Positions 3,903 to 57,707 of a stretch of 64,000 bases of DNA are shown one piece after another. Positions within the stretch are counted from its first letter, which is position 1; each line of letters opens with the position of its first letter. This DNA comes from Escherichia phage kvi. Location of the stretch: sequence record MN850615.1; one strand, given 5' to 3'. The translations under genes were made by a program, and so were the position numbers. A model generated the notes under the pieces. That model did not search any database. It was given only the letters and a program-made list of their open reading frames with translations, and was not told the origin of the DNA.

Positions 3903-4299
3903 AATTTGTGTTCCATTCTGGTTTAAATTTGGTGATCAAAACAGGTTCTTCGATATCGGCAGTGCTTATAATATCCTTGCCCGTTGGATTCTCAATATAT
4001 AACTCAAAGCACTGGCGGTAATAGAATGTTACTGTCTTACCTTCCTCTAGCGCCTTATGAATATTCTTACTCTTGCGAGTATCCGCTGTTGGTGTTTGTC
4101 TGTTAATGCTAGTCCGGTAATAATTGATCCGCTTTCTGAGATTGACAGTCTGACCAATGTATACCAGTTCATCATCAACCGAAATAGCGTAAAGAACATT
4201 TAAACGGTTCTTCTGAGGCGGTAGAATCACGTCACCATCTTTACACTCTAAACATGAATATTTAACGAATCCATAGTTTTCTATTAGCTCATTAATCAT
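3838..4299 (-). CDS. denA: endonuclease II (GIY-YIG family)
   Basis: 153 aa; GIY-YIG-like core VLYAI...VYIGQT...LRKRINYYR; between rnlA and nrdB as in T4. Confidence 0.8.
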   Translation of the reverse strand: MINELIENYGFVKYSCLECKDGDVILPPQKNRLNVLYAISVDDELVYIGQTVNLRKRINYYRTSINRQTPTADTRKSKNIHKALEEGKTVTFYYRQCFELYIENPTGKDIISTADIEEPVLITKFKPEWNTNYVNKRKQQKSFSIVQKSDGTM

Positions 4300-4349
4300 T
4301 ATCCTTTCCTCACGTCACAACAAAGGCGGGATTTCTCCCGCCCACCTTA

Positions 4350-4748
4350 TTAACTTTCCAGAATATCGCGAGCTTCGTTACGCTCCTTGATGATTTTCAG
4401 GACAAATTCCAGTTTTTCTTTGTTTAGTGTTCCGTTTTCCATTGCTTCTTTGACGGTAAACACTCCGCCACCTTGACCGTATACAGTGACAGTGATTTCA
4501 CCTAACATCGTGGTATGAAAACCGCCAATTTTCGGTGATTCGAAAGAAACAATTACCTCGCGGACAGTATTACCGTCGTTGATTTCTGAGAGGGTAATGT
4601 CGTTTTTGTAGGCGGTTGCTTTAACCATACGGATCAGCATAGTCTGATCTGGGGAGATGGTCATTTTGTCCATTGCATGTTGCAATGCAGCGTAACCGAA
4701 AACTTTAACGAAGTCCAGAACGTCTTTGCGAGTTTGAAATTTAATCAT
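4350..4748 (-). CDS. hypothetical protein
   Basis: 132-aa ORF with upstream promoter and SD. Confidence 0.5.
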   Translation of the reverse strand: MIKFQTRKDVLDFVKVFGYAALQHAMDKMTISPDQTMLIRMVKATAYKNDITLSEINDGNTVREVIVSFESPKIGGFHTTMLGEITVTVYGQGGGVFTVKEAMENGTLNKEKLEFVLKIIKERNEARDILES

Positions 4749-4781
4749 CTTGATACTCCTTAGTTGTTTTGGTATGGGAGT

Positions 4782-4810
4782 ATCTTACTACTCCCGTGAT
4801 ATGCTGTCAA
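4782..4810 (-). promoter_or_regulatory. sigma70-like early promoter
   Basis: minus strand TTGACA (4810-4805) N17 TAAGAT (4787-4782); -10 sits in loop of GGGAGTA/TACTCCC hairpin. Confidence 0.5.
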
Positions 4811-4818
4811 CTGCTTTT

Positions 4819-4968
4819 TTATGCAACCGCAAACATCAACATTTGAACATTCTTGGCTGTCTGGCTTTCAAAGTTCTGACATTCTTTGATAATGTCCTCT
4901 ACTTTCTCGCCGGAGATCTCCGCGTAAGTTTCGATTGCCATTTTCAGTACCGCGTCAAAGTTGTTCAT
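4819..4968 (-). CDS. small hypothetical protein (49 aa)
   Basis: ATG 4968 preceded by AAGGAGAATCAA; MNNFDAVLKMAIETYAEISGEKVEDIIKEC...; own promoter upstream; below ORF-track cutoff. Confidence 0.35.
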   Translation of the reverse strand: MNNFDAVLKMAIETYAEISGEKVEDIIKECQNFESQTAKNVQMLMFAVA

Positions 4969-53882: not shown

Positions 53883-55359
53883 TTAAATGTCAAACAGGTC
53901 AGTCAGAGAAGCAACTTTCTCATATTGCAGCTTTGCAGCCGTGGTAATGTTCTCCAGTGGTTTGACGAAAGTCTTATTAAACAACAAAGGCCAGTCTAAC
54001 CACTTTAACACCTCTGATTCAATTTCTGGAGGAATACGAGTACCGGACAACCAACCAAAACAGATTTCTCCAAACGGATTTCGATCTTTCAGCGGTACAA
54101 TCATAACCTTCTCGCCCTCACGAATTGGATCTAGTCCGAATTTTCGAGCATTACGATTATAACACAATACACTCTTAACCGCATACGGACAACCCTTAAT
54201 CGGATACCCGTTTGAATCGCTGTATTTCTGTAGGTTGTTTGCAGATGATACCGCAGCAACCTCAAGATAATCAAGTTTTCTAAATTCTTGCTCAAAAATA
54301 CCGTAGTATTCCTGCAATGACTCTTCACCTTCCTGCAACATACGGCGAATACATTCTTTCAGTGATTTCTGACATGCTTTAGGGGTGGAGCTACGTTGCG
54401 TTTCCAAGCCCATGATTTTTAGCTTAGGTTCAGCAAAGCGCGTTCCTTCCATATCCCAAACATTAAGAGCATAACGCTTTTTGCCAGTCCAGAATCCACC
54501 GATACCCGCAGATTTCAACGGAGGACCAGCAATTGCCTCACGGTCCATAAACATCAAGTGCTCATAGTTGTTCATGTACTCGCATAACTCGCGATATCCC
54601 TTGTCGATAATAGGTTCCATTCGATGTTTACCGAAATTATCAAGGAAGTCAACAAGTTTTTCGGTATCGTCGAAACGGTCTTCCCCGCCAACCTTATCAA
54701 CAACATTGTTAACCAGCACATAAACGGAGTCAGTATCACAATAACGAACATATGCAAAATCGGTTGTTCCGCAAAGCTCGTTTAAGTATTCGTTAATCTT
54801 ACGCTCAATCCACTGAATTGCAAGCTGACCAAACAAGGTGATCGCACTAGCGTTACGGAGATCATAAAAACGGAATTTAGGATTCCCCAACGCACCATAA
54901 AGGGAGTTGATCAAAACTTTTCGAGAAAGCTGGTTTGTATTGCACAAGATCGACTCGTCTTTACATTCTTCCAGCAATTTCTCTAAGGCATCTTTACTTA
55001 ATTCAGAAAGCATCGATTTAAACGCTTCATCAAAGTCGTGACGTACTTCAACGCTATAGCTAATGGTTCCCCCATAAACATGATTTTCATCGTGTAGAAT
55101 CGCTTTACAGAGTTCAGCATTGCGATCACATGCCAACATCATGTTTTTGTACTGCTTACGCTGATCGAATACCTTTTTAATCTCAATCGGTACGATACCG
55201 TGAATATCTTTTCTATACATCCATCCGTTAGGAGAGCAAGAATACTCATCACTCGGACGTGGTGCAGTTTTATTGATATACTCGTGCATCGGTGCAGCAT
55301 CAAAAGATCCGGCGATTGTTTCCGGCGAAATGTTAACCTGACGGATGATTGATGGATAC
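53883..55359 (-). CDS. 43: DNA polymerase gp43, exon 2 (polymerase domain)
   Basis: frame open from 55358 (YPSIIRQVN...) with TAA just upstream; family-B motifs KILINSLYGALG and YCDTDS. Confidence 0.85.
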
Positions 55360-56473
55360 CATTATGTTCAGCGCGGTTCGCTACTCCCGCGCCCGTTCTC
55401 TTACGAACTGCTACATGTCACCATGTAGATCAGACTATATCACATTCTCATAGAGAATCCTGCCATTTCGAATCGCTTGATTCTACTCTACTCGGTTCGT
55501 TACCCTTTCGATAGTCGTTGAACAACTGCATCTTTAAGCTCATTTTGATCAAACGGTGTTCTCTTACAGTACCCGCTATAATTCTTAGCAAAAGGTTTCT
55601 TCTTACCAAAGATCTCTTTTCCTGAATTATGTGATTCAACAAGAAAATTCACCATTTCATCAAATGTGAAACTTGCAAATTTAGCATAAGTTTCATTACG
55701 TTTTGACATTATTTTACTCATAACTTCCGGTCGTTTAGACGCTGAATTTTCGCGTTTCTCGCCAGTATTAAATGATACCAACTCACCGGAAACATATCTA
55801 GGATCATCACAACTAACTCTAAACCGATTTCCTTCCTTATCCTTAACGATAACAGTATTCTTTAGCTTTTCTGCCATAGAATCAAGACCTTTTCGTATAG
55901 TGTCCTCATCAGCCCCGAAATATTTCTTTCCGCTCATATCGGTTCTGGCTTTTCCGGTCTTGTTTTCGGATATTTTCAGTCTAACTTCCTCTCGCTTGGC
56001 TGGGTTATTGTCTCCAGCGAATGCATCTTTGGTTAACGCCTTCACTTTATCGTCATAAGATCCTCTAGAGATGAAAGCATATGCTCTCTTGCATTCACCG
56101 TTATTGAATATTAAGCACAATAACCGATGCGCCTCGACGTGGTCTTCAAACTTAAGCCTAACAAGATTCCATTTATCTAACCGATATTCAGGGAACATTG
56201 ACTTCGGGCATATATGATGCACCTCGGAATATTCTTCACCCTGATACGGATTAGACACCAGTTTAATGTAGTCGTTTAATGCTTCCTCGTTATGTATTTC
56301 GTACTTTCTTAAAATGTCTTTCATCTCGCGCCTCCAATGTATATCAATATTTATATACATTATAAGACACGTTAGCTCAAAATGCAACTGCTGCTGATTG
56401 TCTCCTTAGAGATTTCCCAGCAATTAAGCAGGTTATTCGATCACTGTCACCAGTGAAAGCCCCATATCAGTTT
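55360..56473 (-). mobile_element. group I self-splicing intron in gene 43
   Basis: P, Q, R, S core elements in order; 5' exon ends in U, intron ends in G; encloses HNH ORF. Confidence 0.8.
55500..56324 (-). CDS. intron-encoded HNH homing endonuclease
   Basis: start refined to ATG 56324 (SD GGAGG); HNH motif EVHHICPKSMFPEY..WNLVRLKFEDHVEAH; 3' end overlaps intron R element. Confidence 0.8.
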   Translation of the reverse strand: MKDILRKYEIHNEEALNDYIKLVSNPYQGEEYSEVHHICPKSMFPEYRLDKWNLVRLKFEDHVEAHRLLCLIFNNGECKRAYAFISRGSYDDKVKALTKDAFAGDNNPAKREEVRLKISENKTGKARTDMSGKKYFGADEDTIRKGLDSMAEKLKNTVIVKDKEGNRFRVSCDDPRYVSGELVSFNTGEKRENSASKRPEVMSKIMSKRNETYAKFASFTFDEMVNFLVESHNSGKEIFGKKKPFAKNYSGYCKRTPFDQNELKDAVVQRLSKG

Positions 56474-57675
56474 AGGGAAGTAAGGTCAAAGCTCATCATC
56501 CAACGGTAAGCATTCGGCACAGGTTCTTTTACGAATGCGCCTGGATACGTCTGCTTAGGCTGTATCTTATTTTCCGGTACTACTTTACCCTCAGCTTTCA
56601 GAGATCCGAAGATAATAGCATCCCATACTTTCATCGGGTTATAAACATGGTTAAATTTAATCTTTGCATAGAAACATAGACTATACACCAGATCGATAAA
56701 TCCACGCTTTTTATCAATCGCCAGCACACGATCAACGTCGCCGATGTTATAATCGATGTAAAGTTGATGGTTGTCATCACGCAATTTCTTTAACGGACCA
56801 TCATAATCAACCTTACCGATTCCTGTCTCATATTCAGCAACATAATCTAACGCATATGTTGGTTGAGTCGTAAAGCTAAATTTCTTGTATAGGTCAATAT
56901 AATCAAGGCTTTCGATCCCCATGATCGTAAATGCTTCACGCTCGTTGCCAAAATCATCCTGTGAGATTCGGGATTTAATCTTACCGCACGGGCTTAGACG
57001 GTTAGCGGTTCTACTTCCGAACTTATTACTGATACGTTTAATGATATATGGAATATCGAATGTTTCTGTGTTCCAGCCAGTGAAACCAACGGGTCGGTTT
57101 TCCTCAAAGAATCGGATGTATTCTAACAGCAATTCATCTTCTGTGTCATAGACGTTATAAACAACGCGCTCTACAATATCAGGTCGAAGAATAGACTTGC
57201 TAGATTCCCAGATTTCACCGTTTTTTCCTTTCAAATCAAATACAAAGAAACGATCATGTACGGAATCATAATGCGTAATTGCATCGATAGGATATTTCGC
57301 TTCTTCTGGTTTAGGAAATTCTGGGGCAGTGACCTCGATATCAACCCATGCTACACGGATTTTATTTCGGTCATATCGAATCTCTCCTTTATACGTATCA
57401 GACAGATAGGAGATGATAAAATCATCCATCCCTAGCGCCTCTTGCCCCATTTCTCCCATCTTTTTACGCCATTTGTTGGCCTCGTTCATAGAGGGGAATT
57501 TTTTAGCAATGCAAGGCTTGCCATAGATATCTTTATAATTCGTAACCATACCAGGCGCGGCATGATGAAATAAAGTTGGCGTATATTCAACGTAACGCTC
57601 TTGTTCTTGTCCAGCATCATCAATATAACGCTCGTAGATCTTATCACCTACTCGCTCACATGACAGAAAATACAT
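56474..57675 (-). CDS. 43: DNA polymerase gp43, exon 1 (3'-5' exonuclease domain)
   Basis: start refined to ATG 57675 (SD GAAGGAG; track start is GTG); Exo I WVDIEV, Exo III YNIGDVD; ends ...SFDLTSL. Confidence 0.85.
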
Positions 57676-57707
57676 AATATAAACTCCTTCACTTACGAAA
57701 GACACTC

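Follow-up and report, generated by a model that had tools for sequence, protein, structure and literature searches.

The window, a stretch of 64,000 nucleotides from Escherichia phage kvi (MN850615.1), belongs to a Krischvirus, a T4-type phage of the RB49 kind. On its minus strand, gene 43 for the family B DNA polymerase lies in two pieces, separated by an insertion that carries an open reading frame (ORF). The locus is composed of the following features:

56474..57675, minus strand: gene 43 exon 1 (family B DNA polymerase), 1202 nt, from ATG (MYFLSCERVG...) to U56474
55360..56473, minus strand: very probable group I (IA2, td-like) intron, 1114 nt, with its terminal G (omega-G) at 55360
56327..56371, minus strand: predicted hairpin burying the Shine-Dalgarno sequence of the intron ORF, with GGAGG at 56335-31; 5' arm and loop contain TATAAATA (56355-48)
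55500..56324, minus strand: putative intron-encoded homing endonuclease, Mob-like HNH with NUMOD3-like repeats, 274 aa
53883..55359, minus strand: gene 43 exon 2 of 1477 nt, stop codon included (Pfam DNA_pol_B, E = 2.7e-22)

Exon 1 matches Pfam DNA_pol_B_exo1 (E = 1.8e-16) and is colinear with RB49 gp43. The gene 43 of RB49 lacks the 1114-nt insertion, which sits exactly between CU and G of a Leu codon. U56474 is the second base of this codon in the motif DLTSL|YPS, and exon 2 begins with G|UAU CCA, which completes CUG and continues as YPSIIRQ... Excising 55360-56473 gives a 2679-nt coding sequence whose 892-aa product is the same as RB49 gp43 in 892 of 892 residues, and the predicted spliced junction reads ...ACUUCCCU|GUAUCCAUC... 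The original prediction had joined U56474 to G55359 to restore CUG. It had also placed the end of the upstream ORF at ...SFDLTSLN-stop (stop at 56469-56467), the opening of the downstream polymerase frame at 55358, the last intron base at G55360 and the last 5' exon base at U56474. The comparison with intronless relatives bears this junction out, and the observation of a gene 43 intron is confirmed with every coordinate exact.

The first in-frame ATG of exon 2 is found at 55289, 23 codons past the 3' splice site, and the Shine-Dalgarno sequence that we sought upstream of it is absent. Among 9 phages these 23 codons contain 10 polymorphic sites, nine of which are synonymous. Judging by these codons, which include YPS of motif A and evolve as coding sequence, exon 2 is evidently read from its first base.

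Ribozyme fold and covariation

The helices that we assign to the intron RNA are:

56460..56477, minus strand: P1, CCCU (56477-56474) and A56473 with UGGGG (56464-60), from the sequence and the Rfam alignment of the copy in phage JSE
56464..56468, minus strand: P10 half of the internal guide, GAUAU, adjoining the guide GGGG; predicted to pair with exon 2 GUAUC (55359-55355)
56442..56455, minus strand: P2 hairpin, CACUG-GUGA-CAGUG with a GNRA tetraloop; compensatory changes in 4/5 pairs
56427..56432, minus strand: P3 5' strand CCUGCU, with GGCAGG at 55464-55459; 100% of cells paired, compensatory changes in 4/6 pairs
56392..56425, minus strand: P4-P5-P4', with P4 UGCUGG (56422-17), P5 UCUC-UAAG-GAGA (56412-01) and P4' UCAGCA (56397-92)
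56374..56391, minus strand: P6/P6a 5' strand GCAGUUGCAUUUUGAGCU, pairing with 55540-55522 and closing an 837-nt ORF-bearing loop
55522..55540, minus strand: P6/P6a 3' strand AGCUUAAAGAUGCAGUUGU, within the ORF end
55512..55516, minus strand: P7 5' strand GACUA, in R, pairing with UAGUC (55437-55433) in S; invariant in 8/8 introns
55470..55511, minus strand: P7.1, UCG (55511-09) with CGA (55494-92), and P7.2, GAAUC-AAGC-GAUUC (55483-70)
55444..55458, minus strand: P8 hairpin AUUCUC-UAU-GAGAAU; 95.8% paired, 3 covarying pairs
55371..55428, minus strand: P9 (55428-11, GUGA tetraloop), P9.1 (55408-395) and P9.2 (55392-371), with 3, 4 and 5 covarying pairs

The characteristic arrangement of a group I intron is found here. 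The last U of the 5' exon pairs with a guide G as a wobble at the 5' splice site, and this U-G pair occurs in 7 of the 8 aligned introns. The exon sequence TCCCT is retained in all intron-containing alleles, which come from three phage lineages. P1 itself is short, with 5 bp. The intron ends in omega-G, homologous introns likewise terminate in G, and the 3' exon could form P10, a pairing that was drawn by eye from the sequence; Pectobacterium phage POP12 has a GUAU with GUAC pairing at the P10 position. P3 to P8 follow in canonical order, with covariation and with P7 forming a pseudoknot with P3 and holding the guanosine-binding site. Two additional helices, P7.1 and P7.2, lie between P7 and the 3' strand of P3 and are those of subgroup IA2. 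The classic P and Q elements fall within the P4-P5-P4' stretch. All four elements of the original prediction, namely P (AATTGCTGGGAAA, 56425-56413), Q (AATCAGCAGC, 56399-56390), R (GTTCAACGACTAT, 55523-55511) and S (GATATAGTCTG, 55441-55431), are exactly placed, as is the internal guide GGGG at 56463-56460, which pairs with the 5' exon CCCU.

For covariation we drew up a model by hand, with 72 pairs in 13 helices, and evaluated it across 8 introns. Pairing is seen in 90.8% of cells, against 37-44% with slid partners, a figure to be read knowing that six of the eight sequences come from three lineages (four of the six from Ackermannviridae) and that many cells are not independent events. Changes on both sides are found in 34 pairs, against 9-12 in the slid controls, and none of 500 shuffles reached the observed values. 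P3, P5 (3 covarying pairs), P6 and P8 covary, and so does P7.2, with 3 covarying pairs and complete (100%) pairing. P4, P7 and P7.1 are invariant, which is compatible with the fold and gives no covariation evidence; P4 matches the Rfam consensus. P6 is an 18-bp helix (56391-56374 with 55540-55522), of which all 10 counted pairs form in the window and all 10 in POP12. Three of these pairs differ between the two phages, two of them on both sides (U-A to A-U, C-G to A-U). Unconstrained minimum free energy folding of the ORF-deleted RNA gives complete P1, P2, P3, P5, P7.2, P8, P9, P9.1 and P9.2. It does not recover P4, P7.1 and most of P6, and the P7 pseudoknot cannot be drawn by the program. We do not count these misses against the helices because P6 covaries and P4 fits the Rfam consensus.

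The Rfam search needs a more careful reading. The group I model RF00028 matches the window with 30.6 bits (55411-55671) and 13.2 bits (56392-56422). Its E-value is 1.3e-5 when the local region is searched and 6.6e-4 over all 64 kb of the window, in which RF00028 is the sole Rfam match at E <= 0.05. At the gathering threshold, which for RF00028 is a curated score of 50 bits, nothing is reported in the whole window. The score reaches only 30.6 bits because of the 837-nt ORF-bearing loop in P6. The JSE copy, in which 650 bp of the ORF are deleted, gives a full-length match (42.9 bits, E = 1.6e-9), and with 58.6 bits the gathering score is exceeded by a homologue in phage PC3 that occupies this site and naturally has no ORF. 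The group I covariance match that was anticipated is thus present at a permissive E-value, and above the cut-off in PC3, but the window itself stays below the gathering score. Taking "no hit" at that score as a refutation would have wrongly rejected a real intron. More generally, Rfam scans at the gathering threshold overlook ORF-bearing group I introns (30.6 against 50 bits).

The match to a group I intron lies well beyond chance, both by the RF00028 E-values and by the 0 of 500 shuffles. The intronless relatives, Rfam and covariation together support the group I reading, and we are highly confident that a mobile IA2 group I intron, similar to that of T4 td, interrupts gene 43 inside the Leu codon of motif A (DxxSL|YPS). 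At least 11 independently deposited phage records have this intron in an essential polymerase, so it must be removed in vivo, and the viability of these phages points indirectly to guanosine-dependent self-splicing. From the fold we would expect the following course of splicing. One pre-mRNA would be transcribed across the interrupted gene, and the intron would fold into a P3-P8 core that contains the pseudoknot of P3 and P7 as well as the IA-specific P7.1 and P7.2. The guide GGGG would form P1 with exon CCCU and set the U-G wobble at the splice site, whereupon a free guanosine bound in P7 would attack after U56474. The adjoining guide GAUAU could then align exon 2 GUAUC as P10. With G55360 in the guanosine site the exons would be ligated, giving CUG and the full-length 892-aa polymerase.

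The intron ORF and its expression

The 274-aa ORF had been predicted to lie between Q and R with its own Shine-Dalgarno sequence. Both points hold: it occupies the P6 loop (56324-55500), and GGAGG is found 7 nt before its ATG. The 9 codons that close it (AVVQRLSKG) lie over P6', P7 and the first part of P7.1.

PHROGs labels the ORF product "HNH endonuclease" (phrog_12434, E = 1.9e-130), which is an annotation and not a curated domain model. Among 26 homologues with identities down to 26%, H36, H37, P40, H62 and H66 never vary and the conservation of N53 is at least 90%, so that the His...Asn...His pattern of catalytic and metal-binding residues is present as HH-N-H-H. The motif region furthermore shares 41% identity (E = 3e-16) with a free-standing Mob endonuclease of the T4 type, of a class termed "mob-like HNH" by Petrov et al. 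2010 (PMC2993671). The Pfam HNH domain, on the other hand, was found neither in the ORF (at E <= 0.01 or E <= 10) nor in the 26 homologues, and the only Pfam match of the ORF is NUMOD3 with E = 0.27. Searches of PDB chains with the single sequence (phmmer) and with a profile gave spurious or no matches, and none as an HNH enzyme. On the conserved residues and the Mob similarity, we regard the ORF product as a putative Mob-like HNH homing endonuclease.

The hairpin over the GGAGG has a folding energy of -18.6 to -19.4 kcal/mol (z = -3.8 to -4.8). POP12 and Dickeya phage LIMEstone1 have hairpins of this design but of different sequence, so that the design is shared by three lineages. TATAAATA is the consensus of T4 late promoters, and the arrangement resembles the design of T4 late expression. 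In T4, the ribosome-binding site of I-TevI is hidden in a hairpin and a late promoter produces translatable late transcripts. By analogy, the endonuclease's ribosome-binding site would be locked in the hairpin of the long pre-mRNA, and a late start at TATAAATA would give transcripts without the 5' arm, which are translatable. We infer in this way that TATAAATA may be the promoter of the endonuclease gene and that its expression may be timed late. The octamer occurs only 4 times in the window, but a single occurrence is statistically not compelling as a promoter.

Competing readings and mobility

The two polymerase pieces could alternatively be true cistrons, 43A and 43B, separated by the insertion of a homing endonuclease, which are translated apart and reassemble without splicing, an arrangement seen in Aeromonas phages 44RR and 25 and in nrdA of Aeh1. 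GenBank records do annotate a "DNA polymerase" CDS on either side of the ORF, and split gp43 enzymes exist among T4-type phages (Edgell et al. 2010, PMC2988022). A split gene of the 44RR type would have a separate start for its second cistron, and all conserved residues would be covered by the two polypeptides together. Here the break sits within catalytic motif A, the first piece would gain an Asn before its stop, and ATG 55289 is without a Shine-Dalgarno sequence. A start there would drop YPSIIRQVNISPETIAGSFDAAP, yet this segment is conserved and evolves almost entirely by synonymous changes, and the intervening RNA forms a complete covarying group I core. We therefore regard separate translation as highly improbable. 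Even less credible is a free-standing endonuclease gene beside an ORF-less intron, although collaborative homing of this sort has been described for T4-type phages (Petrov et al. 2010, PMC2993671), with Aeromonas phage 25 as an example, and for cyanophage psbA. The ORF sits between the two strands of the 18-bp P6 helix and its end is made of core helices, which places it inside the ribozyme and not beside it.

A more serious question is whether the intron splices while its endonuclease does not, or not mainly, serve homing. The protein could be inactive, a splicing aid, or mainly a means of interference competition that attacks the polymerase gene of co-infecting phages without the intron. The ORF of JSE has decayed while the intron persists, the Pfam HNH domain is undetected, and intronless relatives show clustered synonymous changes at the target. 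An intron-encoded endonuclease of phage PhiPA3 has also been reported to act in phage-phage competition (PMC11620839). But all four full-length copies that were translated (window, G2494, JK32 and ECD7) have the complete ORF of 274 aa, its protein is 98.5-99.3% conserved in ELT4, Cognac and JK32, and the catalytic-motif residues are invariant even in the most distant homologues. The recoded exon bases beside the intron also fit homing with co-conversion. We consider a mainly non-homing role rather unlikely, and none of these roles would exclude homing. As for other candidates, an intein was rejected owing to in-frame stop codons after the junction, and a second intron in gene 43 was rejected since the spliced coding sequence is colinear with RB49 throughout. 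Rfam gave no further group I introns in the 64-kb window at E <= 0.05.

Most intronless phages differ from the intron-bearing allele by 11 synonymous changes within 29 nt around the insertion point, and the recoded bases form a short stretch beside the intron, as predicted for homing with co-conversion. This clustering is consistent with past homing, without being a proof of it. On the preferred reading of a mobile intron with a homing endonuclease, the enzyme would cut or nick an intronless gene 43 in a mixed infection, and recombinational repair would copy the intron together with a few flanking exon bases.

We tentatively raise a further possibility, which is at present doubtful: Krischviruses that co-infect a cell may be in a continuing conflict at the active-site codons of the polymerase, in which intron and endonuclease form one party and the synonymous variants are selected cleavage-resistance alleles. 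On this reading the element also seems to have passed between Straboviridae and Ackermannviridae through the nearly universal DxxSLYP target. If this were true, hybrids of the RB49 type would be products of partial co-conversion or intron loss, and the endonuclease would serve for competition in addition to homing. The locus would then be a natural system for target-site escape inside an invariant protein motif.

Distribution and closest known systems

The gene 43 intron is already known and is not new. We find the same intron in at least 11 other public Krischvirus GenBank records, with 98-99.6% identity. These 11 records correspond to 10 phages (ELT4, JEP8, G2494, G5211, ECD7, MIZ4, MIZ5, Cognac, PTE-Eco09 and JK32), as ECD7 was deposited twice. 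Introns of the same family are found in the same codon, always with exon TCCCT, in POP12 and in Ackermannviridae (I-LimII). To call the element a notable invasion was therefore an overstatement: besides the public records, the JSE relic was reported in 2010, and group I introns of phage DNA polymerase genes are a well-known class. A literature search on the Krischvirus intron found no papers, nor did we find experimental proof of splicing for the gene 43 intron or for I-LimII, and the LIMEstone paper labels the I-LimII intron "putative" (PMC3296691).

Most records with the element annotate two "DNA polymerase" CDSs and, in addition, an HNH gene or a "hypothetical protein". None of the five Krischvirus records inspected has an annotated intron or joined CDS, hence the Krischvirus polymerase is mis-described as fragmented. 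For the biology, the window adds a clean and intact example to the known class of mobile group I introns that interrupt essential replication genes of phages. A useful comparison set comes with it, with intron-containing, ORF-decayed (JSE) and intronless alleles in one genus at about 98% identity, and with homologous introns at one codon in two phage families.

The closest relative is the putative group I intron in JSE gene 43 described by Petrov et al. 2010 (Virol J 7:292, PMC2993671). It has the same nucleotide position and flanking exon bases and is 99.1% identical in the shared parts, but about 650 bp of its ORF are lost and 32 codons are left, while the ORF of the window is intact with 274 aa, as it is in the 11 other records. 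The I-LimII intron of LIMEstone1 and its Ackermannviridae copies (Adriaenssens et al. 2012, PMC3296691) interrupt the same polymerase codon (D-L-N-S-L|Y-P) after the same exon TCCCT. They share a homologous ribozyme core and an endonuclease that is 35% identical over 96% of its length, and the version above the Rfam cut-off in PC3 is an ORF-less one of this kind. They differ from the gene 43 intron in belonging to another phage family and in having a larger P6a, P7.1 and P8 and a weaker P10, and LIMEstone1 has a second insertion further along the polymerase gene.

Several more distant introns share parts of this design. SPO1 (I-HmuI), Bastille (I-BasI) and Pf-WMP3 (I-PfoP3I) also have group I introns with an HNH-type endonuclease in an essential and conserved polymerase region (PMC3428280; PMC2988022). 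Their polymerases are, however, of family A and their insertion sites are unrelated, and these endonucleases, unlike the ORF of the window, have Pfam HNH and NUMOD matches or solved structures. Aeromonas phage 25 carries a group IA intron in a T4-type gene 43 (25.g43B; Petrov, Ratnayaka and Karam 2010, as cited in PMC2993671). In that account the intron is ORF-less and thought to depend on a neighbouring free-standing endonuclease, and genes 43A and 43B of Aeromonas phages 25 and 44RR are truly two cistrons, which gene 43 of the window is not.

Over 128 nt, the 3' core of the gene 43 intron shares 81.5% identity with a site in Proteus phage phiP4-3 that is annotated as an I-TevI homing endonuclease. 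The T4 td intron, of subgroup IA2, has its ORF in P6, then P7.1 and P7.2, and then P9 to P9.2, and its helix plan is the same as that of the gene 43 intron. The gene 43 intron also resembles td/I-TevI in having the endonuclease's ribosome-binding site in a hairpin with a late-promoter-like element. It differs from td in that the interrupted gene encodes a polymerase instead of thymidylate synthase, in that the putative endonuclease is Mob-like HNH instead of GIY-YIG, and in that the ORF end reads through P6' and P7.

The insertion in gene 43 and its probable removal from the RNA

By megablast the window belongs to Krischvirus, the RB49-like T4-type coliphages, with vB_EcoM_G2494 and G5211 as nearest records (99.2% over the 1.7 kb tested), and uvsX, gene 43, regA, 62 and 44 adjoin one another in it. 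The original prediction placed a group I intron in gene 43, and all of its coordinates were exact when re-read on the sequence:

56469-56467, minus strand: stop of the upstream polymerase ORF, which ends ...SFDLTSLN
56463-60, minus strand: guide GGGG
56425-13, minus strand: core motif P, AATTGCTGGGAAA
56399-90, minus strand: core motif Q, AATCAGCAGC
56324-55500, minus strand: endonuclease ORF, 274 aa, with GGAGG 7 nt upstream of its ATG
55523-11, minus strand: core motif R, GTTCAACGACTAT
55441-31, minus strand: core motif S, GATATAGTCTG
55360, minus strand: last base of the intron, G
55358, minus strand: position from which the downstream polymerase frame is open

Exactly 1114 nt, from 55360 to 56473, are missing from RB49, and their excision leaves a 2679-nt CDS whose product equals RB49 gp43 at 892 of 892 residues. 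Together these observations fix the junction U56474/G55359 to the nucleotide, and the usual ambiguity there is settled by the U and G rule. In the mechanical ORF list gene 43 begins at a GTG, ten codons ahead of its true start (window 57675-57705); RB49 and related phages use that true start, an ATG that opens MYFLSCERVG....

With its in-frame stop codon the insert cannot be an intein. The other alternative is a split enzyme of the 44RR type, in which genes 43A and 43B are separately translated cistrons. The downstream piece does have an ATG at 55289, 23 codons in, but we found no Shine-Dalgarno sequence before it. The 69 nt upstream of this ATG evolve as coding sequence, since nine of their ten polymorphic sites among nine Krischvirus sequences are synonymous, and the YPS of motif A, part of the active site in family B polymerases, is encoded there. 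These coding codons and the missing Shine-Dalgarno sequence rule out the split enzyme. Exon 2 is coding from its first base, so the insert must be removed at the RNA level.

Covariance models and the intron fold

A covariance-model search had been proposed as a check. At the Rfam gathering threshold no family is reported in the 64-kb window, but at permissive thresholds the group I intron family RF00028 is the only one found, at 30.6 bits, with the 3' half (R, P3', P8, S, P9) aligned confidently and a second match of 13.2 bits to P3-P5. The score falls below the cut-off because of an 837-nt loop in P6, as two relatives show. In JSE the same intron is present (99.1% identity over the shared parts) but lacks 650 bp of the ORF, and it reaches 42.9 bits against the full model (E = 1.6e-9), with P1 first, at exon CCCU. 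At that site PC3 (Ackermannviridae) has a homologue that naturally carries no ORF; it scores 58.6 bits, above the cut-off.

Our full fold model comprises P1, P2, P3, P4, P5, P6/P6a, P7, P7.1, P7.2, P3', P8, P7', P9, P9.1 and P9.2, with P6/P6a closing the loop that contains the ORF; we added a five-base P10, in which exon 2 GUAUC pairs with GAUAU, immediately next to the P1 guide. The modelled helices are arranged as in subgroup IA2 (T4 td type). When the ORF-excised RNA is folded without constraints, nine helices come out whole. We aligned eight introns, namely the ORF-excised window intron, those of POP12, LIMEstone1, PC3, KE30 and allotria, and two related ones from Acinetobacter phage YMC13/03/R2096. 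Standard pairs occupy 90.8% of cells, against 37-44% with partners slid by 1-3 columns, and both sides change in 34 of 72 pairs, compared with 9-12 in the slid controls; since four of these eight introns are closely related, the cell counts overstate independent events. None of 500 shuffles equals any of the observed measures. Covariation is seen in P2, P3, P5, P6, P7.2, P8, P9, P9.1 and P9.2, while P4, P7 and P7.1 are invariant, and most of the signal comes from two contrasts, the window against POP12 and the polymerase introns against Acinetobacter. The insertion is confirmed, and its reading as a group I intron is supported by intronless RB49, by RF00028 in JSE and PC3, and by covariation.

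Distribution, exon flanks and annotation

The full intron is found in 11 records at 98-99.6% identity (phage collection), with JSE as a decayed copy, beside about 41 intronless Krischvirus records. The same codon (D-x-x-S-L/Y-P) is occupied by homologous introns with homologous endonucleases in POP12, a Straboviridae phage of Pectobacterium, as well as in many Ackermannviridae that infect Dickeya, Salmonella and E. coli. The exon sequence is TCCCT, pairing with the guide GGGG, in all intron-bearing alleles, and AGTCT or AGTTT in intronless Krischviruses. We compared window positions 56484-56475 and 55358-55340 with the intronless alleles L003 and L011-L013 (a slash marks the insertion site):

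Intron-bearing: GAC CTT ACT TCC CT/G TAT CCA TCA ATC ATC CGT
Most intronless Krischviruses: GAC TTA ACA AGT CT/G TAC CCA TCT ATT ATT CGA

The last 10 exon-1 bases hold six synonymous differences from RB49 and the first 19 exon-2 bases five more from the majority intronless type; the two sequences above differ by 11 silent changes in 29 nt, clustered at the insertion site, and the remainder of gene 43 differs by about 1.7%. Hybrid alleles, in which an intronless 5' flank is joined to an intron-type 3' flank, occur in RB49, KFS-EC, Whisky and FL37. Such a pattern would be expected from co-conversion of the exon flanks during homing, and selection for cleavage-resistant targets has possibly sharpened it. 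Judged from these alignments, the flanks look like co-conversion tracts, target-site escape, or both.

YMC13/03/R2096 (L007) has two adjacent unannotated group I introns (1342-1611 and 1727-1949; RF00028 78.8 and 96.6 bits); an HNH endonuclease gene lies on one side of the pair and the annotated large-subunit terminase CDS on the other, which suggests that the terminase gene has unannotated upstream exons. In LIMEstone1 (L005) a second insertion, 4088-4930, lies further along the polymerase gene; it encodes I-LimIII on the other strand and is flanked by two further 'DNA polymerase' CDSs.

In substance the element was known before. Petrov et al. (2010, PMC2993671) noted a putative group I intron in gene 43 of JSE, and Adriaenssens et al. 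(2012, PMC3296691) gave the name I-LimII to a putative intron in the polymerase gene of LIMEstone1. Phage DNA polymerase genes with a group I intron and an HNH endonuclease have been known for a long time, those of SPO1, Bastille and Pf-WMP3 among them (PMC3428280; PMC2988022, reference list). Our literature search found no paper on the intact Krischvirus intron or demonstrating its splicing. None of five inspected Krischvirus records with the element (MK327935, MK962753, NC_041936, NC_012740 and others) annotates an intron or joined CDS; the polymerase is entered either as a pair of CDSs or under a misc_feature, 'similar to putative DNA polymerase'. The case is of value mainly for the annotation correction, as evidence that Rfam scans run at threshold overlook introns with an ORF, and as a tidy natural series for homing studies.

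The endonuclease gene and its proposed regulation

The ORF had been called an HNH endonuclease. It falls in phrog_12434, 'HNH endonuclease' (E = 1.9e-130), and is 35% identical to I-LimII over 96% of its length. I-LimII is GIY-YIG in Table 1 of the LIMEstone1 paper (PMC3296691), contrary to its assignment as HNH by RefSeq and by the homology found here. Over residues 12-84 the ORF product shares 41% identity (E = 3e-16) with a free-standing T4-type endonuclease of the Mob class, which is encoded between nrdD and nrdG; Petrov et al. (PMC2993671) list this class as 'mob-like HNH'. H36, H37, P40, H62 and H66 never change across 26 homologues, down to 26% identity, and N53 almost never. PDB sequence searches gave no matches, and neither the ORF, its relatives nor the T4 Mob protein matches Pfam HNH. 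We accept 'Mob-like HNH' as the best label, noting that it did not pass the curated-domain test.

The last nine codons, AVVQRLSKG (with the stop, 55500-55529), are also P6', P7 and the first P7.1 nucleotides. This double role explains why the motif is kept in homologues otherwise only 41-78% identical: ribozyme constraints apparently keep a protein motif from changing. Metagenomic homologues with this C-terminus thus belong to the same intron family. In JSE (L001, around 1990-2060) the length of the 650-bp deletion is not divisible by three, and 32 codons of the endonuclease gene remain; the ribozyme parts are still 99% identical. This copy shows an endonuclease caught in decay after fixation.

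In our folding the Shine-Dalgarno sequence of the ORF is paired within a hairpin, 56371-56327 (-18.6 to -19.4 kcal/mol), whose 5' arm and loop hold TATAAATA, the T4 late-promoter consensus. The POP12 and LIMEstone1 hairpins differ in sequence and share the layout and a TAAATA motif, annotated in LIMEstone1 by its authors as a putative late promoter. The window hairpin has z = -3.8 to -4.8, and no shuffle folds as well. T4 I-TevI and mobE are translated only from late transcripts without the 5' arm of their hairpin. By analogy, the ORF would be translated only from late transcripts that lack this arm, and its hairpin and late-promoter consensus match the regulation of I-TevI and mobE.
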